Below, in pieces: positions 47,391-54,529 of a stretch of 64,000 nt of DNA. The notes beneath the pieces are model-generated. The model was not told where the DNA came from, searched no databases, and saw nothing but the letters and a program-made list of their open reading frames with translations. The DNA comes from an uncultured Bacilli bacterium (GTDB lineage: Bacteria; Bacillota_I; Bacilli_A; RF39; UBA660): contig CAKPDF010000001.1 in NCBI GenBank assembly GCA_934148535.1, forward strand, positions 127,361-191,360, in the 5' to 3' direction. Numbering within the stretch: position 1 is the stretch's first letter; the number at the start of each line of letters is the position of its first letter. The position numbers and the translations under genes were made by a program.

Positions 47391-48947
47391 GTGATATTTA
47401 TGAAGAAAAGTTTTGTTAAAATGAATGTTGATGACAAAGAATTATCTTTAGGTAACTTCTGCAGGTTGCTTAAGAGCTTGGCTGTTAATAAAAGTGCAGC
47501 TTTGCAAGTGGAGGTATTTTCTTGTTTATTTGATGTTGATAGTATTCAAGATACTACTGTTAATAATTATTGTATAGGACTTCGTTCTATTGGTGATGAA
47601 TATAAGCAAAAGTATTTAATATTAAAGAAGAAATATAATAAAGATAAATTTATTATGATTAATATTTGCCTTAGGATTGTTTCTATCTTGGATGGTAATT
47701 TATATTTTAATATTAGTAATAAGGATGGATATTTATTAATCAATTCTAATAAAAAAATTAAGGAATTTTGTTTAAAGTTATATAATATTGCTAAAAATGA
47801 TGCTAGTGTATCTTTGGAAGTTAGTGGTAGTATTTATTCTAAAATATGTGATGGTAACTTATATGAGGCTTTAGTTTATATATTGTTTTATATTATTTTA
47901 GAAAAAAAACAGCCTGTATATGAAGAGGATAAAAAGAAAGATGTGATTGAAAATTTATTAGCACAGTCAAAAATTTCTTCTTCTGATTTAGAGGACTATC
48001 TTAAATTAAAGTTTTGTGAGGGAAGTAATTATTATTTATCTTTGAAAAAACTTGCTAATAATGAAAATGCTTATGCTTGTTTTGAATTAGGATGTTTAGA
48101 ATATGAGGGTAATATTTTTGGAATACCTAGGTATGATGTTGCCTATTCTTATTTTTTAAAAGCTACAAAAATGGATCATCCATCGTCATATTATTATATT
48201 GGAAGAATGTATTTTAATGGAAATATTGGTTCAAGAAAAGATGAAGAGAAGAAAATGGCTTTTGATTATTTTAAGAGAGCTAGTGAACTTGGATGTATAA
48301 GTGCTTTTAACTCTTTGGGACTTTTTTATCTTAAGGGAATATATCCTGTAGAGAAAGATATTGATACTGCTATTAAATATTTTAAAAAAGCTAGTGGTAA
48401 TAATTATGTATATGCTTTTAATAATTTGGGATTAATAGAAGAAAAAAGAAATAATTATTCTATGGCGTTTGAATATTTTAAAAAGAGTGCTGATTTAGGA
48501 GAGAGTTGGGCTTGTAATAGAGTTGGTGAATACTATAGAAAAGGTGTATATGTTGATAAAAACATGGTAGATGCTTTTAATTATTACAATAAGGGATTAG
48601 ATGTTCCTAAGTTATATCTATGTTTTTATAATTTTTATAATTTGGCTAGATATTATTATTTAGAGGGATGTTTAGATATTGTAATTAGTCCTGATAAGAA
48701 TAAGGCTATGGAATATTTGATGGTTGCTAGTGATAATGGTATTATAGAAGCTAATATATTATTATTTTATTACTATATTGAATGTTATTTAAAAAATAAA
48801 GATTCTTCAAATTTAGCTTATGTTTATGAATATAAGAAAAAAATTGAAACTGATTCTCAATATAATAGTACTATTAAAAGAGATATAGAAAATGCATTAA
48901 AAAAAATATCAACTCATAATGATATTGATATTTCCTCTATTATTTAG
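47391..48947 (+). CDS. Sel1-repeat (TPR-like) protein
   Basis: C-terminal half contains >=6 tandem ~36-aa Sel1-like repeats (A..YF.KA...G...A.NNLG..Y..G.GV..D...A..YY.K...). Confidence 0.6.
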   Translation: MIFMKKSFVKMNVDDKELSLGNFCRLLKSLAVNKSAALQVEVFSCLFDVDSIQDTTVNNYCIGLRSIGDEYKQKYLILKKKYNKDKFIMINICLRIVSILDGNLYFNISNKDGYLLINSNKKIKEFCLKLYNIAKNDASVSLEVSGSIYSKICDGNLYEALVYILFYIILEKKQPVYEEDKKKDVIENLLAQSKISSSDLEDYLKLKFCEGSNYYLSLKKLANNENAYACFELGCLEYEGNIFGIPRYDVAYSYFLKATKMDHPSSYYYIGRMYFNGNIGSRKDEEKKMAFDYFKRASELGCISAFNSLGLFYLKGIYPVEKDIDTAIKYFKKASGNNYVYAFNNLGLIEEKRNNYSMAFEYFKKSADLGESWACNRVGEYYRKGVYVDKNMVDAFNYYNKGLDVPKLYLCFYNFYNLARYYYLEGCLDIVISPDKNKAMEYLMVASDNGIIEANILLFYYYIECYLKNKDSSNLAYVYEYKKKIETDSQYNSTIKRDIENALKKISTHNDIDISSII

Positions 48948-49381
48948 TTATATTTAAAGTTTGTTCTCATTTCTCTTTCTGTGTCTCTTTTCTTAATAGT
49001 TTCTCTCTTGTCATAATTTTTCTTACCTTTGCAAAGACCTAATAGTACTTTTGCTTTACTATTTTTAAAATATATTTTTAATGGTATTAAAGTATATCCT
49101 TCTAATGTTATTTTATTTGATAATTTCATTATTTCTTTTTTATGCATTAATAGTTTTCTGGTTCTATCTTCTTCATGATTAAAAATATTGCCTTTTTCAT
49201 ACGCTGATATGTGAGTATTTAATAAAAATAGTTCATTATTTCTTATGATTGCATAACTATCTTTTATATTGGCTTTACCTTCTCTTATAGATTTTATTTC
49301 AGTGCCTTTTAATACTATTCCAACTTCATATTCTTCTTCTATTTCATAATCATATCTTGCTTTTCTATTTAATATTTCCAT
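48944..49381 (-). CDS. smpB: SsrA-binding protein
   Basis: 145 aa; conserved SmpB core (NRKARYDYEI...GIVLKGTEIKS...LLMHK). Confidence 0.9.
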   Translation of the reverse strand: MEILNRKARYDYEIEEEYEVGIVLKGTEIKSIREGKANIKDSYAIIRNNELFLLNTHISAYEKGNIFNHEEDRTRKLLMHKKEIMKLSNKITLEGYTLIPLKIYFKNSKAKVLLGLCKGKKNYDKRETIKKRDTEREMRTNFKYN

Positions 49382-49410
49382 AGGACATTTTTCCTTTCTT
49401 TTATATGTTA

Positions 49411-49472
49411 ATTATATTATTATAATTTTATTTTGTCAATTTTTTGACAAAATGTGGAAGTTGTGCTATTAT
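49411..49472. promoter_or_regulatory. Back-to-back divergent sigma-A promoters inside a perfect palindrome. The minus-strand promoter is TTGACA(49434-49439)-17-TATAAT(49411-49416) for smpB. The plus-strand promoter is TTGACA(49444-49449)-17-TATTAT(49467-49472) for sRNA copy 1
   Basis: ttttgtcaa tttt ttgacaaaa (49431-49452) is a perfect 9-bp-arm palindrome supplying both -35 hexamers. Confidence 0.55.
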
Positions 49473-49603
49473 TAGTATGTAAGCAAGGAAACTTGCATAT
49501 ATTAAAAAAGGAACATTCGATTTTGCAAGTGAATGTCATCCTTAATTTTGTTTGGTGACACTCAGTTTAATGAGTGTCTTTTTATTATGTTTATTAGTAT
49601 TTT
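49465..49603 (+). repeat. Direct repeat copy A (~139 bp, ~90% identical to 49833-49975)
   Basis: Alignment by eye of gctattattagtatg...gacactcagtttaatgagtgtctttttattatgtttattagtattt. Confidence 0.8.
49479..49585 (+). ncRNA. Candidate small RNA, copy 1 (~105 nt), from promoter to intrinsic terminator; convergent with and directly abutting the 3' end of the 30-aa peptide ORF
   Basis: Own promoter; internal alternative stems (TGTAAG/CTTGCA versus ACTTGCA/TGCAAGT); terminator GACACTCA-gtttaa-TGAGTGTC + T5 (49557-49583); no ORF. Confidence 0.45.
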
Positions 49604-49686
49604 ATTACTAATATCAATAATATGGTAAGTAATAAAATTAGACATAGTAATTTTAATAATTTTAAAATAAATGTTTTTATCTTCAT
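49594..49686 (-). CDS. 30-aa hydrophobic peptide MKIKTFILKLLKLLCLILLLTILLILVIKY; type I toxin-like small membrane peptide
   Basis: Manual translation. Strong SD GGAGGTGG 5 nt upstream of the ATG. The SD is pairable with upstream CCTCCA (hairpin CCTCCA-9nt-TGGAGG at 49695-49715). Extended -10 promoter TGATATAAT at 49745-49753. Confidence 0.45.
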   Translation of the reverse strand: MKIKTFILKLLKLLCLILLLTILLILVIKY

Positions 49687-49744
49687 ACTTACCACCTCCA
49701 TTCTATTGTTGGAGGATGACACTCACATCAAATGTTCCTAGATA

Positions 49745-49777
49745 ATTATATCAGATATTTCTATTTTATTTTTACAA
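49745..49777 (-). promoter_or_regulatory. Extended -10 promoter (TGATATAAT) for the 30-aa peptide mRNA; weak -35 (TTGTAA at a 21-nt spacing)
   Basis: Revcomp of attatatca at 49745-49753; gives a ~55-nt structured 5'UTR. Confidence 0.4.
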
Positions 49778-49832
49778 TTTACTAACAGTATTCAAATTCA
49801 CTAGCAGTTACTTGATTTGTTATAACATTTAT

Positions 49833-49975
49833 GCTATTATTAGTATGCAAGCAAGGAAACTTGCATATATTAAAAAATGGAACATTCAATTTTGTAAGTG
49901 AATGTCATCCTCAATGTTTTTTTGGTTTTGACACTCAGTTTAATGAGTGTCTTTTTATTATGTTTATTAGTATTT
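49833..49975 (+). repeat. Direct repeat copy B (~143 bp)
   Basis: See copy A; differs by ~10 substitutions and a short T-tract insertion. Confidence 0.8.
49847..49957 (+). ncRNA. Candidate small RNA, copy 2 (~110 nt): promoter TTGATT(49812-49817)-17-TATTAT(49835-49840), terminator 49930-49956
   Basis: Same architecture as copy 1. Stem substitutions preserve pairing through G-U wobbles (TGCAAG/CTTGCA perfect, ACTTGCA/TGTAAGT wobble). Confidence 0.45.
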
Positions 49976-49996
49976 CTTAATTAGAAAAATAAGCAT

Positions 49997-51211
49997 TTAA
50001 TTGGTGCTTATTTCTTTTACTTTTATATTACTATTTAGAGATGTTATAACATTTTTATATTTTTCATATACTTCTTGATAATTATTTAAGTACGAATTAT
50101 CTATTTTAGAAAATGGCACTATTAAGAAATCTTTATATTCATTTGTATAGTACATATATAGTAATTCATTTTCTAAATTTTTAATAGTTATTTTATTTGT
50201 TTTTAAATCTTTTTCTATTTCTAGAGAGGTCATCAATCCCACTCTATTATCCATATTTACTACTTCATGTGCAGATGCAAAATTACCTAGCGAATATATT
50301 ACTAAAGTATTATTTATATAATCTATTGGCTCTATAACATGGGGATGAGTTCCTATTATTATGTCTACGCCATTATCACTTAAGAATTTTGCAGCATCTT
50401 TTTGATAGGCATTTGGCATATTTTGATATTCTATTCCCCAATGCATTGCTACAAGTAATACATCTACTTTATCTCTTACTCTTTTTATATCCTCTAATAC
50501 TTGTTGTTTATAATTTTGATACTCGATATCTTTTTCTGGATTATTTCCGTTCATAGGCCATATATTTACTAGATAATTTTCATCTTCTGGTACGTTAATT
50601 TCGTTAGTTCCATAAGTATAATTTAGCATTGTATATGTTATTCCATTAGATTCTCTTATATCTATTTTATTTCTTTCTTCTTGACTGGAATAAGAACCTA
50701 CTGCTAAAACATTTTCTTTAGAATTCCAATAATTTCTTGAATTTAATACTGCTTGCTTCCCTCTATCTAGAGTATGATTTGTAGCAAGAGATACTAAATT
50801 AAATCCTGCGTCTATCATTGCATCTGCTACTTCATATGGTGAGTTGAAGGCAGGATATGATGATAATCCTATTTCACTTCCTCCTATGATAGTTTCTTGG
50901 TTGTAGTATGCTATATCGTAATTTGAGACTATACTTTTAATCATTTTATACATTGGTTTAAAGTCATAACTTTCATAATTTGCATTTCTATTTGCTTCTT
51001 CATAAATACTTGAATGTATTAGATTATCTCCTACCATTATTAGAGATGTTGAAGTTGTATTTTTTATATTTTCTTTTTCTATATTTTTATTTTCTTTTTC
51101 TTGTTCTGTTTTGGGAATTAATAATAAAATTATACTTGTTAATAGTATTAATATTAAAATAGATATGATTAAAGACTTAAGTTTTTTAAGTCTTTTGTCT
51201 TTCTTATTCAT
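49997..51211 (-). CDS. CapA/PgsA-family (PGA_cap) metallophosphatase-like membrane-anchored protein, paralog 2
   Basis: N-terminal TM, conserved MHWG.EY and GTHPHV motifs; ~60% identical to the upstream paralog. Confidence 0.75.
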   Translation of the reverse strand: MNKKDKRLKKLKSLIISILILILLTSIILLLIPKTEQEKENKNIEKENIKNTTSTSLIMVGDNLIHSSIYEEANRNANYESYDFKPMYKMIKSIVSNYDIAYYNQETIIGGSEIGLSSYPAFNSPYEVADAMIDAGFNLVSLATNHTLDRGKQAVLNSRNYWNSKENVLAVGSYSSQEERNKIDIRESNGITYTMLNYTYGTNEINVPEDENYLVNIWPMNGNNPEKDIEYQNYKQQVLEDIKRVRDKVDVLLVAMHWGIEYQNMPNAYQKDAAKFLSDNGVDIIIGTHPHVIEPIDYINNTLVIYSLGNFASAHEVVNMDNRVGLMTSLEIEKDLKTNKITIKNLENELLYMYYTNEYKDFLIVPFSKIDNSYLNNYQEVYEKYKNVITSLNSNIKVKEISTN

Positions 51212-52457
51212 ACGCTGGTACTACTTTCATGGTTTCATCATATTTCTGAACTACTGCTTTATATTTTTCATATACTGTTTTATATGATGGTAAATATGTT
51301 TTTATTGCTTCATTAGAAAATGGAACAACTTTAAAATTTCTAAATCCACTATAGTAAGTATATATTAATTCATTTGAAACATCATCTATTTTAATGGTTT
51401 TATCTTTTCCTTTTTCTGTTTTAGTTATTTTAAAACTAGTCATTAGTCCTGTAGTACATTTATAATCAGTACAAGTTGATTGATTTTGATATTGAGCTGA
51501 TATTAGGTTTCCTAATGAATATATTACTAGAGTATTATCTATCCAAGTAACTGGTTGGATTACATGAGGATGAGTTCCTATTATTACATCTACTCCATTA
51601 TCTGCTAAAAATTTTGCCATATCTTTTTCATATTCTGTAGGTTCATGGGTGTATTCTACTCCCCAATGCATTGCTACAAATAATACATCTACTTTATCTC
51701 TTACTCTTTTTATATCTTCTAATACTGTTTTTTTATAATCTTGATATTCTGTATCTTTTTCAGGATCATTTATATCTAAATCTGTAGGCCATACATTTAC
51801 TAAGTATTCTTTCCCTTCTGGTACTTTAATACCATTAGTACCATAGGTATAATTTAACATTGTATATGTTATTCCATTAGATTCTCTTATATCTACTTTA
51901 TTTCTTTCTTCTTCACTGGAATAAGAACCTACTGCTAAAACATTTTCTTTAGAATTCCAATATTCTCTTGAATTTAATACAGCTTTACTTCCTGAATCAA
52001 TTGTATGGTTTGTGGCAAGGGATACTAGATTAAATCCTAAGTCTATCATAGTATCTCCTACTTCATATGGTGAATTGAATGTTGGATAGTCACTTAATCC
52101 GATTTCAGATCCTCCTAAAATTGTTTCTTGGTTATAATATTCTATATCATAATTTGATACTATTGGTTTTAATAATTCATACATTGGTGAGAAGTCATAT
52201 CCGTCATAATTAGCATTTCTATGGGCTTCATTGTAAAGACTTGAATGTATTAAGTTATCTCCTGCTGTTATTACAGAGGTTGTATATACTTTTTCTTTAA
52301 CTTCCTCTTTTGTACCATTATTATTAGATTCTGTTTTTACTTCTTTTTTTAATATTTGTTTACTACAATAAAATATTACTAAAATGAATAATATTACTAA
52401 TGATAGTGCTATAAAAATATTTCCTAGTTTTAATTTTCTTTTTTTCTTTCTATTCAT
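51204..52457 (-). CDS. CapA/PgsA-family (PGA_cap) metallophosphatase-like membrane-anchored protein, paralog 1
   Basis: Same motifs as paralog 2; tandem duplication with 8-nt overlap. Confidence 0.75.
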   Translation of the reverse strand: MNRKKKRKLKLGNIFIALSLVILFILVIFYCSKQILKKEVKTESNNNGTKEEVKEKVYTTSVITAGDNLIHSSLYNEAHRNANYDGYDFSPMYELLKPIVSNYDIEYYNQETILGGSEIGLSDYPTFNSPYEVGDTMIDLGFNLVSLATNHTIDSGSKAVLNSREYWNSKENVLAVGSYSSEEERNKVDIRESNGITYTMLNYTYGTNGIKVPEGKEYLVNVWPTDLDINDPEKDTEYQDYKKTVLEDIKRVRDKVDVLFVAMHWGVEYTHEPTEYEKDMAKFLADNGVDVIIGTHPHVIQPVTWIDNTLVIYSLGNLISAQYQNQSTCTDYKCTTGLMTSFKITKTEKGKDKTIKIDDVSNELIYTYYSGFRNFKVVPFSNEAIKTYLPSYKTVYEKYKAVVQKYDETMKVVPAYE

Positions 52458-52465
52458 AACTTCTC

Positions 52466-54529
52466 CTACTTTTCTACTACTTCAAAATCTATCATAGATG
52501 TATCTTTATTAGCGTTTATTACTTTTACTTTAACTCTATCTCCAAATCTATATTGTTTTTTCTTATCTTGGCTGGTTAACATTTTGGCTTTTTCATTATA
52601 ATTAAATCCTGATGATTTTACTAATCCTTCTATGGTGTTATCTAATTCTACGAAGAATCCAAATTCTTGTACTCCAGATATAACTCCTTCAAAAGTTTCT
52701 CCAATATGATCTTGCATATATTCTGCTTTTTTCATATCGTCTACATCTCTTTCACATTTTACAGCATCTTGTTCTTTGATAGAGCAATGTTCTGCCATTT
52801 CTGGTAATCTTTCAGCCCATTTTTCTATGGTTTGTTCTGAATAATTTTCTTCATAATCTTTTACTAATCTATGTAATATTAGATCTGGATATCTTCTTAT
52901 TGGGGATGTAAAGTGTGAATAACATTTACTTCCTAATCCAAAGTGTCCAATATTTTCGCTAGAGTAAATTGCTTTGGCCTGACATCTTATTGCCATGTCA
53001 TTTAATATATGATAATCTGGTTTATCTTTTAATTGTTCTAATACTTTTTGTAAATCTTTACTAGTTATATTATCTCTTTTTCCTTTTACCACATATCCTC
53101 TTGCTGCTAAGAAGTCAAAAAAGCTTGATAATCTTTCTTCATTTGGTTTATCATGAATACGGTATATTCCTGGTAAATTTTGATAGAATATGTGGCTACC
53201 TACTGTTTCATTAGCGGCTACCATAAAGTTTTCTATCATGTTTTCTCCAGTCCCTTCATTTCTTAATTTGATATCTATTGGATGGCAGTTTTCGTCTACT
53301 ATTATTTTTGCTTCAGGAGAAGAAAATTCTATATAACCTCTAGATATCATTTTTGTTCTTAGTATATCTGATAATTCTTTCATTAATCTTAAGTCATTTA
53401 CGAATGGTTCATAATTTTCTGGAATTTCATTTTTATCTAATATTTGATTTACTTTGTTATAAGTCATTTGAATTCTACTTCTTATTACAGTCTTTCTTAT
53501 GTCATATTTTACTACTTTTCCTTGTTTATTTATTTTCATTAGACAAGATAGCGCTAATCTATCAACATTTGGATTAAGTGAACAGATACCGTTTGATAAT
53601 TTATGAGGTAACATAGGTATAACTCTATCTACTAGATATACACTTGTTGCTCTTTCATATGCTTCATCGTTTAATGGTGTATTTTCTTTTACATAATTAC
53701 TTACATCTGCTATATGAACTCCTAAGTTATATGTTCCATCTTCATTTTTATCTATACTTACTGCATCATCTATATCTTTGGTATCGTCACCATCTATTGT
53801 AAAGATTGTTTTATCTCTTAGGTCTAATCTTCCTATCGTATCTTTTTCTTCTATTTCATCTGGAATGCAATCTAAGTATTTTATTACTTCTTCAGGAAAA
53901 TTTGGTTTAAAGTCATGAGCGTATACGTATGATACTATATCTATACCTACATCATTTTTATGACCTATTACTTTTATTACGTTTGCTAAATATTTGCTTC
54001 CGTTTATTGGTAATACTACAACTTTATGTCCTTCTACTAGACCTTTGCTTGTTTCTTTTGTTACTTGCATATCTATATATTCTTTAGAATCGGGGTGAAC
54101 GTAGCATAATTTATCTTTAAAATAAATTGTACCTACTATTTTACTTTCGTCTCTTTGTAAAATTTTTATTATTTTTCCTTCTGTTTTATCTCCTATTAAT
54201 TCTATTAATACTATGTCGTTATGTCTTGCAGTATTTAAATTGTTTTTATTAATATATATATCGTCTTTACCATTTCCAATTTCTACAAATCCAAAGCCTT
54301 TTCTATTCATTAATAATTTACCTTTTACTAAATGACTATTTTCTAGTAATAGATATTTTTTCTTTTTTTCACTATAATATAATATTCCGAGAGCAGCCAT
54401 TTCTTTTAGTTTTTTATCTAATTTTTGATATTCTTCTATTGTTGTATATCCTAATAGATCGTTAATTTCTATAGTAGATAAATTTGGCCTTTCTTTATTT
54501 GATAATATGTTAATTATGTCGTTTTCCAT
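52466..54529 (-). CDS. rnr: ribonuclease R
   Basis: 687 aa; cold-shock/OB N-terminus, RNB catalytic domain (IDGDDTKDIDDAVS...HIADVS), C-terminal S1 domain. Confidence 0.9.
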   Translation of the reverse strand: MENDIINILSNKERPNLSTIEINDLLGYTTIEEYQKLDKKLKEMAALGILYYSEKKKKYLLLENSHLVKGKLLMNRKGFGFVEIGNGKDDIYINKNNLNTARHNDIVLIELIGDKTEGKIIKILQRDESKIVGTIYFKDKLCYVHPDSKEYIDMQVTKETSKGLVEGHKVVVLPINGSKYLANVIKVIGHKNDVGIDIVSYVYAHDFKPNFPEEVIKYLDCIPDEIEEKDTIGRLDLRDKTIFTIDGDDTKDIDDAVSIDKNEDGTYNLGVHIADVSNYVKENTPLNDEAYERATSVYLVDRVIPMLPHKLSNGICSLNPNVDRLALSCLMKINKQGKVVKYDIRKTVIRSRIQMTYNKVNQILDKNEIPENYEPFVNDLRLMKELSDILRTKMISRGYIEFSSPEAKIIVDENCHPIDIKLRNEGTGENMIENFMVAANETVGSHIFYQNLPGIYRIHDKPNEERLSSFFDFLAARGYVVKGKRDNITSKDLQKVLEQLKDKPDYHILNDMAIRCQAKAIYSSENIGHFGLGSKCYSHFTSPIRRYPDLILHRLVKDYEENYSEQTIEKWAERLPEMAEHCSIKEQDAVKCERDVDDMKKAEYMQDHIGETFEGVISGVQEFGFFVELDNTIEGLVKSSGFNYNEKAKMLTSQDKKKQYRFGDRVKVKVINANKDTSMIDFEVVEK

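Follow-up and report, generated by a model that had tools for sequence, protein, structure and literature searches.

The spacer between smpB and the first of two capA-like genes in an uncultured Bacilli bacterium (positions 49382-49996 of a 64-kb stretch of contig CAKPDF010000001.1, which was analysed as a whole and is referred to as the window) contains two small RNA (sRNA) genes on the plus strand and, between them on the minus strand, an open reading frame (ORF) for a 30-amino-acid (aa) hydrophobic peptide (Table 1). This arrangement probably represents a chromosomal cassette of the type I toxin-antitoxin kind, from a family not yet described, as judged from its sequence and that of its relatives. 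The sRNA genes belong to two direct repeats (49461-49603 and 49829-49975), which a first-pass annotation of this DNA had put at about 90% identity and which match in 136 of 148 aligned columns (92%). Two motifs derived from these repeats occur exactly twice each in the window, where 0.00 occurrences were expected (none in 100 shuffles).

Table 1. Positions of the predicted features of the cassette and of its flanking genes in the window (nt, nucleotides; SD, Shine-Dalgarno sequence).
Feature	Position	Strand	Remarks
smpB	48944-49381	minus	flanks the module on one side
sRNA copy 1 promoter	49444-49472	plus	TTGACA-17-TATTAT with TG; sigma-70-type, 11/12 matches
sRNA copy 1, predicted antitoxin	49479-49584	plus	~106 nt; start placed from the promoter
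sRNA copy 1, hairpin 1	49483-49496	plus	GAAA loop
sRNA copy 1, hairpin 2	49510-49541	plus	preceded by an A-rich linker
sRNA copy 1, terminator hairpin	49557-49578	plus	GACACTCAGTTTAATGAGTGTC then T5
Predicted peptide mRNA	49738->49504	minus	~235 nt, GGAACA... to U6; ends placed from promoter and terminator
Long-distance helix, 3' arm	49510-49542	minus	also the mRNA terminator hairpin; inverted repeat I10
Peptide ORF, 30 aa	49594-49686	minus	MKIKTFILKLLKLLCLILLLTILLILVIKY; stop codon included; ORF translation
Spacer/start-codon region UGGUAAGU paired with internal ORF segment ACUUACCA	49623-49694	minus	inverted repeat I11 and fold
SD	49699->49692	minus	GGAGGTGG / GGAGGUGG; sequence
Anti-SD	49715->49710	minus	CCUCCA, upstream of the SD, which it sequesters (fold)
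Long-distance helix, 5' arm	49713-49738	minus	GGAACAUUUGAUGUGAGUGUCAUCCU; fold and arm alignment
Extended -10 of the peptide mRNA	49753->49745	minus	TGATATAAT; sequence
sRNA copy 2 promoter	49812-49840	plus	TTGATT-17-TATTAT with TG; 9/12 matches
sRNA copy 2	49847-49957	plus	lacks its own peptide gene; oriented divergently to the peptide promoter
sRNA copy 2, terminator hairpin	49930-49951	plus	GACACTCAGTTTAATGAGTGTC then T5
Putative remnant of a lost peptide gene 3' end	49957-49975	minus	last codons and stop, downstream of sRNA copy 2; our reading of the sequence
First capA-like gene	49997-51211	minus	flanks the module on the other side

The sRNA genes and the peptide gene that faces them

Each repeat was annotated at first as a promoter, a non-coding RNA of ~105 nt and a terminator, and the features detected here agree with that description. 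The predicted RNA is about 106 nt long, and two terminator-like sites were found where 0.1 were expected. Both predicted sRNAs form three hairpins and fold better than all 200 of their shuffled versions (z = -4.25 for copy 1 and -3.4 for copy 2). For comparison, 47 related loci were collected from gut metagenomes and metagenome-assembled genomes (MAGs) of uncultured Bacilli. In these relatives the sRNA promoter is kept at a fixed distance, with at least 10 of 12 consensus matches in 31 of 59 distinct upstream regions (3 of 59 when shuffled) and a TG-extended -10 in 49 of the 59, and nearly all copies show a run of T on the plus strand after the sRNA terminator. When 48 copies were aligned (A3), compensatory changes, many of them in the terminator, were seen in hairpin 2 and the terminator hairpin, together with G·U pairs possible on the plus strand alone (in about 23 and 21 cells, respectively, compared to about 2 and 8 of the opposite kind). 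Hairpin 1, which lies beyond the point where the peptide mRNA is predicted to terminate, showed G-C to A-U changes, U·G wobbles workable only on the plus strand and, often, a GAAA loop. Moreover, sRNA copies standing without a peptide gene retain promoter, hairpins and terminator. Judging from these patterns of substitution, the plus-strand sRNA is also under selection, and transcription seems to proceed on both strands, each transcript stopping at its own one-way terminator, with the two terminators staggered.

The 5' third of the sRNA (hairpin 1 and CAUAUAAUAAAAAAGG) is its most conserved part, being near-invariant, and this 5' module is common to units with other targeting domains and other peptides. 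Its role may lie in RNA stability, in the binding of a protein or in the recognition of other targets; alternatively, as it carries TATAAT 7 nt ahead of GGAACA, in the manner of the mRNA promoter, it may act as an internal promoter. The possibility that the repeat is a known riboswitch or cis-regulatory element, raised in the first-pass annotation, found no support in Rfam. At the gathering threshold only three tRNAs were returned for the whole window, and at E-values up to 10 the region 49300-50100 gave chance-level matches only, with no family at its gathering score. The best of these matches, Qrr on the minus strand, reached 22 bits compared to a gathering score of 50 and was discarded, because it can be put down to the presence of two hairpins and a U-run.

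On the minus strand, the 30-aa ORF, its SD, the extended -10 and the CCUCCA anti-SD were all located as annotated. The peptide has a single hydrophobic stretch, and the consensus of its family is MKKRTFIIKxLxxIxIILLLLILLIxVIKK. The family is conserved: 38 distinct units contain 34 distinct ORF sequences and 32 distinct peptides, with an SD in all of them and a conserved length. Codon position 2 is the least variable, as expected of a hydrophobic coding sequence. A promoter, either an extended -10 or a -35/-10 pair spaced 17 nt, lies 6-7 nt before a conserved GGAAYA in all 38 units. Scans of the peptides against Pfam and NCBIfam at E-values up to 10 returned nothing relevant, and the exact look-up of nine family peptides and of the window's 42-aa extended ORF in a collection of 15 billion proteins found one of them, in a cluster named just "hypothetical protein".

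The gap between the T-run of the sRNA and the peptide stop codon, previously counted as 9 nt, is of 10 nt in the window, whose subfamily combines this gap with a peptide ending in KY. In most relatives (e.g. L010:1259-1368 and L032:4450-5272) the U-tract of the sRNA is antisense to the last codons and the stop, AAA AAA TGA. Conservation of the C-terminal KK may thus reflect constraints from both the function of the peptide and the terminator of the putative antitoxin. Downstream of sRNA copy 2, the repeat runs 24 nt past the terminator and covers what in the intact gene is the stop-codon region, and because of this we read positions 49957-49975 as the remnant of a lost peptide gene.

The predicted peptide mRNA and its closing helix

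The peptide mRNA most likely ends at a terminator on the minus strand, rather than near the stop codon or in smpB. This terminator is conserved and consists of a hairpin (49541->49510), which is the complement of sRNA hairpin 2, followed by U6 (49509->49504). Read-through of the mRNA into smpB, considered as a possibility in the first-pass annotation, is accordingly unlikely; the conserved terminator would limit the overlap with sRNA copy 1 to 81 nt. smpB has a promoter of its own (49439->49411, 12/12 consensus matches). The overlap (49504-49584, out of the ~106 nt of the sRNA) is perfectly antisense and confined to the 3' untranslated region (UTR) of the mRNA, with about 25 nt of the sRNA 5' end lying beyond the mRNA terminator.

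The most distinctive feature of the cassette, absent from the first-pass annotation, is a predicted helix that joins the 5' and 3' ends of this mRNA. The halves of the inverted repeat I10 (plus-strand 49529-49542 and 49713-49726) are complementary within one strand, so that both ends of one RNA would pair together. The fold of the window's mRNA has an energy of -75.3 kcal/mol (z = -10.2), with the first 25-26 nt paired with the terminator region. The minimum-energy folds of 37 of the 38 distinct mRNAs contain the 5'-3' helix, which appears also in three mRNAs from two divergent subfamilies with different arm sequences. In variant units the halves of I10 change together, from CAUCC/GGAUG to CUACC/GGUAG. 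Duplexes between the arms had on average an energy of -36.7 kcal/mol for cognate pairs compared to -30.4 kcal/mol for non-cognate ones, and the minus strand (mean -36.7 kcal/mol) was better than the plus strand (-27.2 kcal/mol) in 38 of 38 units.

A plain MAFFT alignment of the full-length mRNAs, in which the 5' ends were out of register, yielded just 11 long-distance pairs with RNAalifold, and was replaced by anchored arms and folding of each sequence. The alignment of anchored arms (A4) has 29 distinct rows and 26 pairs; 96.4% of its cells are paired, a percentage inflated by the choice of anchors with knowledge of the structure, and compensatory changes occur in 7 pairs. Changes on both sides of a pair were counted in 52 cells, compared to 20.6 ± 3.7 after shuffling (0 of 500 shuffles reached 52), although, as the sequences are related, this control does not amount to a probability. 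The structure scored 0.253, and no more than 0.039 when the partners were slid by 1-3 columns. In most sequences several of the pairs are G·U, where the opposite strand would have A·C, and wobbles (85 cells) far outnumber non-pairs (27 cells), which argues for selection on the minus-strand RNA rather than for an inverted repeat acting at the DNA level. The choice of anchors has less influence on this G·U asymmetry and on the compensatory changes. In our judgement, the 5'-3' helix is very probably a selected feature of the minus-strand RNA.

The translation start is also predicted to be occluded. The SD is paired in the minimum-energy folds of nearly all homologues, and the pairing of the start-codon region with a segment inside the ORF is kept in subgroups with other sequences (UGAUAAAAUG/CAUUUUAUCA and GGUAGA/UCUACC, in part assigned by eye).

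Relatives, copy-number variation and genomic surroundings

An exact look-up of the SmpB protein of the window identified seven metagenome contigs from the same species, in which the spacer between capA and smpB exists in three sizes: 229 nt, with one sRNA gene and no peptide gene; 603-615 nt, with two sRNA genes and one peptide gene; and 979-992 nt, with three sRNA genes and two peptide genes. The shortest form (L003 and L004, 5772-6000, the site of window positions 49382-49996) carries a single chimeric sRNA gene, in which the promoter of copy 1 is joined to a body like that of copy 2, as would be expected if the repeats had recombined and the peptide gene had been lost in the process. The longest (L006 and L007) carries three sRNAs and two different peptide genes.

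Beyond this species, the pattern of sRNA hairpin 2 was detected at 40 loci among 185,579 species genomes, nearly all of them MAGs of uncultured gut Bacilli; one of the 40 belongs to Candidatus Coprosoma intestinipullorum. In the compared loci, nhmmer located 68 sRNA copies, often in arrays with a period of ~350-400 nt, and most of them face a small ORF of the same peptide family. A profile search of all small ORFs yielded 55 peptide genes, 53 of which could be assessed, and a convergent sRNA gene was present at every one of these 53 (five of the sRNA genes had been missed by nhmmer). Conversely, a peptide gene is missing beside about 15 sRNA copies, and some copies adjoin truncated peptide genes: at L009:4018-4437 and L016:99-518, intact sRNA genes stand beside truncated peptide ORFs, that is, decayed genes of the putative toxin. 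Peptide genes that never occur without the sRNA, and sRNAs that often occur without the peptide, constitute the pattern expected of a toxin-antitoxin pair. The first-pass annotation had also considered that the repeats could be generic intergenic sequences scattered without the peptide; the repeat is indeed dispersed, but together with the peptide.

Among the other loci, only L021 and L029 share the smpB/capA context by synteny, and the family is not tied to smpB. Housekeeping genes and tRNA genes are among the flanking genes elsewhere, as is a transfer-messenger RNA (tmRNA) gene in L047, from another species, ~95 nt from the module (L047:5589-5949); modules in L008, L011 and L033 are ~50-120 nt from tRNA genes. 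No CRISPR arrays or recognisable prophages were seen beside the present loci in the flanks examined, and the cassette had no match in plasmids or phages (blastn) or in IMG/VR viral contigs (pattern search). Six contigs with the module (L020, L021, L022, L029, L037 and L039) come from bin CAVJSY01, labelled Oribacterium sp., in which SmpB and the Sel1-repeat, CapA and RNase R proteins share 95-99% identity with those of the window, whereas every other hit belongs to uncultured Bacilli. The label is probably an error of binning or naming, and the bin probably represents the species of the window; its four module contigs besides L021 and L029 imply several loci per genome.

Three more divergent units (L028:2945-3364, L030:3287-3706 and L025:420-700) keep the sRNA promoter and 5' module and differ in hairpin 2, terminator and peptide (MKKKDLLISFLILIIILLIVSL, MTKRELSQFIIILLLFFVVITLLFK and MKKKDILIFNLILIIILLVIALLILCIKK, respectively). 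Their mRNAs also fold with the 5'-3' closing helix, and these units suggest a superfamily with a common antitoxin scaffold.

In the window, the promoters of smpB and of sRNA copy 1 lie back to back (49411-49472), with their -35 boxes forming the palindrome TTGTCAATTTTTTGACAA (49434-49451), and the two divergent transcriptions might be coupled. A 518-aa ORF with faint matches to Sel1 repeats (47391-48947, plus strand) converges on smpB, and their 3' ends share 4 nt. On the other side lie the two capA-like (PGA_cap) paralogues, 49997-51211 and 51204-52457, with 8 nt in common, and after them rnr (52466-54529), which encodes RNase R, and secG. No tmRNA gene was detected with ARAGORN or Rfam in the whole window, though smpB is present.

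Interpretation as a type I toxin-antitoxin-like cassette

The locus combines a hydrophobic protein of fewer than 60 aa, whose predicted mRNA is short and structured, with the gene of an antisense RNA that would be able to base-pair with that mRNA, both of which are traits of type I systems. By analogy with these systems, the peptide is predicted to be a membrane toxin and the sRNA its antitoxin. The type I-like interpretation proposed in the first-pass annotation gains support from the conserved peptide family, the features of the sRNA gene, the 53 of 53 pairing and the solo sRNAs, and we consider it probable.

The mechanism that we propose is modelled on that of bsrG/SR4 (PMC3834814). As the transcripts converge and their one-way terminators are staggered, the sRNA is expected to be fully complementary to the final ~81 nt of the message. 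In the predicted folds the mRNA is built closed and untranslated, with its 5' end, SD and start codon all base-paired, and the putative antitoxin would be complementary to the very region with which that 5' end is paired. The closing helix would shield both ends of the message, which would stay stable and inert. The sRNA would dock on the exposed loop of the first 3'UTR hairpin and on a single-stranded spacer of ~15 nt, and would next displace the 5' arm of the mRNA, which is near-identical in sequence to sRNA hairpin 2. The resulting long duplex would be a substrate for RNase III, leading to destruction of the toxin message, while the freed 5' arm would allow the anti-SD helix, in the complex predicted for the unit in the window, to extend from 4 to 6 bp. 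Co-folding of sRNA and mRNA gave predicted gains of -69 kcal/mol for copy 1 and -38.6 kcal/mol for copy 2 acting in trans; the latter may serve as a spare antitoxin that remains after loss of the toxin gene. Recombination between the sRNA repeats would expand, contract or delete units. Candidate ways for the toxin to be switched on are loss of the sRNA or trimming of the mRNA 3' end, as in hok and aapA.

Some points weigh against this interpretation. The toxin label rests on analogy, because peptide and sRNA match no known toxin or antitoxin family, and all transcript ends were placed from promoters and terminators. The percentage paired in A4 profits from the choice of anchors, and the kinship of the sequences limits the shuffle control, as mentioned above. 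Finally, the model leaves unexplained the conservation of the sRNA 5' third, which is outside the predicted overlap and showed no complementarity to the non-overlapping part of the cognate mRNA (duplex z from -2.1 to +2.2 in 38 units).

Four other explanations were considered. The peptide could be physiological, for example a subunit or modulator of a membrane complex, with the sRNA as a cis-antisense regulator that tunes its level; its lack of similarity to known toxins, which leaves the toxin role to analogy, and the position of several loci among housekeeping genes would fit. However, the peptide gene is dispensable within the species and decays while the sRNA remains, it is never found without the sRNA, and its mRNA is locked in three ways against translation. 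Moreover, tandem arrays, several loci per genome and unrelated contexts fit selfish cassettes better, so that we regard a small membrane protein gene of this sort as unlikely. The near-invariant 5' module of the sRNA, kept where hairpin 2, terminator and peptide differ and lacking complementarity to the cognate mRNA outside the overlap, could instead mean that the sRNA acts mainly in trans on other targets, its antisense effect on the peptide mRNA being secondary. The persistence of sRNA copies with intact promoters and no peptide gene would agree with this, but solo antitoxins are also expected after toxin loss, no target was identified, and changes elsewhere in the sRNA go along with changes in the adjacent peptide mRNA (CAUCC/GGAUG versus CUACC/GGUAG), which ties each sRNA to its neighbour. 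We consider such a main role in trans improbable, although it would be compatible with a toxin-antitoxin function.

As the strongest covariation, that of the 5'-3' helix, concerns the minus-strand RNA, one may also ask whether this strand alone is transcribed, the "sRNA gene" being no more than the mRNA's structured 3'UTR with its terminator, and the promoter and terminator on the plus strand being fortuitous. This is very improbable in view of the near-consensus, TG-extended promoter conserved at a fixed upstream distance, the G·U pairs of hairpin 2 and the terminator hairpin that exist on the plus strand only, the T-run after the terminator in nearly all copies, and hairpin 1 itself, with its plus-strand U·G wobbles and GNRA-type loop, located past the end of the mRNA; the solo copies, in addition, keep the sRNA features without any peptide mRNA. 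The multi-copy, dispersed and sometimes tandem occurrence of the unit, at times near tRNA or tmRNA genes, and the inverted repeat flanking the ORF recall non-coding repeats such as repetitive extragenic palindromes (REP) or miniature inverted-repeat transposable elements (MITE), which would act at the DNA level and contain the small ORF by accident. That explanation appears the most remote, as ORF, SD and length are kept across 32 peptide variants with coding-type substitutions, the departures from Watson-Crick pairing in the inverted repeat are overwhelmingly one-strand G·U pairs that point to RNA, and no match was found in plasmids, phages or viral contigs.

Taken as a type I-like system, the cassette was compared with the families described so far; Rfam covers 13 families of type I antitoxins (PMC8594479). 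The first-pass annotation had likened it to the bsrG/SR4 or txpA/ratA loci. The likeness holds for the layout: bsrG/SR4, BsrE/G/H and TxpA/RatA are, like the cassette, Gram-positive systems with a small hydrophobic toxin and convergent RNAs that overlap at their 3' ends. With bsrG/SR4 the cassette would further share a contact through complementary 3' hairpin loops and cutting by RNase III, and duplexes of B. subtilis type I systems are RNase III substrates (PMC3531473). Binding of SR4 was shown to lengthen the SD-sequestering helix of bsrG from 4 to 8 bp (PMC3834814), compared to the 4 to 6 bp predicted here. In the BsrE/G/H and TxpA/RatA families the antisense RNA lies on the 3' side with a partial overlap that also includes the ORF (PMC8594479), whereas the predicted 81-nt overlap in the window is restricted to the 3'UTR, with a 10-nt gap, and elsewhere in the family reaches the last 2-3 codons at most. 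Neither the peptide nor the sRNA showed sequence or profile similarity to BsrE/G/H or TxpA/RatA in Pfam, NCBIfam or Rfam. Membership of the bsrG/SR4 or txpA/RatA families is therefore unsupported, and the resemblance is one of layout only. To our knowledge, a 5'-3' helix closing onto the terminator hairpin has not been described as a feature of bsrG or txpA mRNAs.

In the par system of the Enterococcus faecalis plasmid pAD1 (Fst/RNA II), as in the cassette, the promoters converge and the first contact is likely made between complementary stem-loops of the terminators. The cassette has the Gram-positive layout with the antisense RNA on the 3' side, and the ORF is left free of overlap, as it is in Fst/RNA II and SprA1 (PMC8594479). 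Fst is recognised by a hydrophobic domain with PXXXG(C) and a charged C-terminal tail, and in par RNA I a 5' upstream helix keeps the message stable and silent (PMC7472228). The peptide has no proline/glycine motif, its C-terminus is only K-Y or K-K with no long charged tail, and it gave no match to the Fst profile in Pfam or NCBIfam at E-values up to 10; the sRNA did not match the Rfam model of RNA II, and a search of 38 units for a further complementarity covering the translation start, like that of DRa/DRb, was negative. The missing motif, tail, profile match and further complementarity argue against membership of the Fst/RNA II family. Moreover, two staggered terminators take here the place of the single shared bidirectional terminator of par, and the 5' end pairs with the terminator hairpin itself.

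With respect to the closing helix, the closest parallels are in hok/Sok of plasmid R1 and aapA/IsoA of Helicobacter pylori, where a conserved 5'-3' long-distance interaction keeps the primary transcript stable and translationally inert until 3' processing (PMC6733600). The likeness, a 5'-3' closure supported by covariation, is one of mechanism and not of homology, and the peptide did not match the Hok/Gef profile. The systems differ in that the antitoxins of hok and aapA pair with the 5' part of the mRNA, whereas here the putative antitoxin is antisense to the 3' partner of the helix and would compete with the mRNA's own 5' end. Type I systems of Clostridioides difficile (CD2517.1/RCd8 and others) also come from low-GC gut Firmicutes, and they likewise pair a small hydrophobic toxin with a convergent antisense RNA and occur as several copies in one genome (PMC5961336, PMC7699646); no direct comparison with them was made, and no Rfam, Pfam or NCBIfam model links them to the cassette. 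On the basis of these sequence comparisons, the cassette likely represents a new family of type I toxin-antitoxin-like systems, with a variant architecture and outside every named family.

A more speculative extension, which we put forward only tentatively, is that the antitoxin is a mimic of the mRNA 5' end, with sRNA hairpin 2 and the 5' arm competing for the terminator hairpin, so that one exchange would set both the stability of the message and the occlusion of its SD. To this would be added the invariant 5' module as a shared handle (a site for a protein or RNase, or a stability element) carrying interchangeable targeting domains, that is, a modular scaffold serving several toxin subfamilies in gut Bacilli with reduced genomes.

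The in-silico support for the cassette is unusually good, including presence/absence alleles within a species, arrays, decayed toxin genes beside intact sRNAs, and covariation. It would add a family from the poorly known, uncultured, low-GC gut Bacilli, and would join the 3'-overlap layout of Gram-positive systems to a closing helix of the hok/AapA type, so far described in separate lineages. Since the antitoxin would target the partner of the closing helix, the strand-exchange mechanism is directly testable. The consensus sequences allow annotation of such loci in metagenomes, and they offer compact orthogonal RNA switches or counter-selection markers for Firmicutes. The cassette would thus represent a new family with an instructive twist inside a well-known class of systems.

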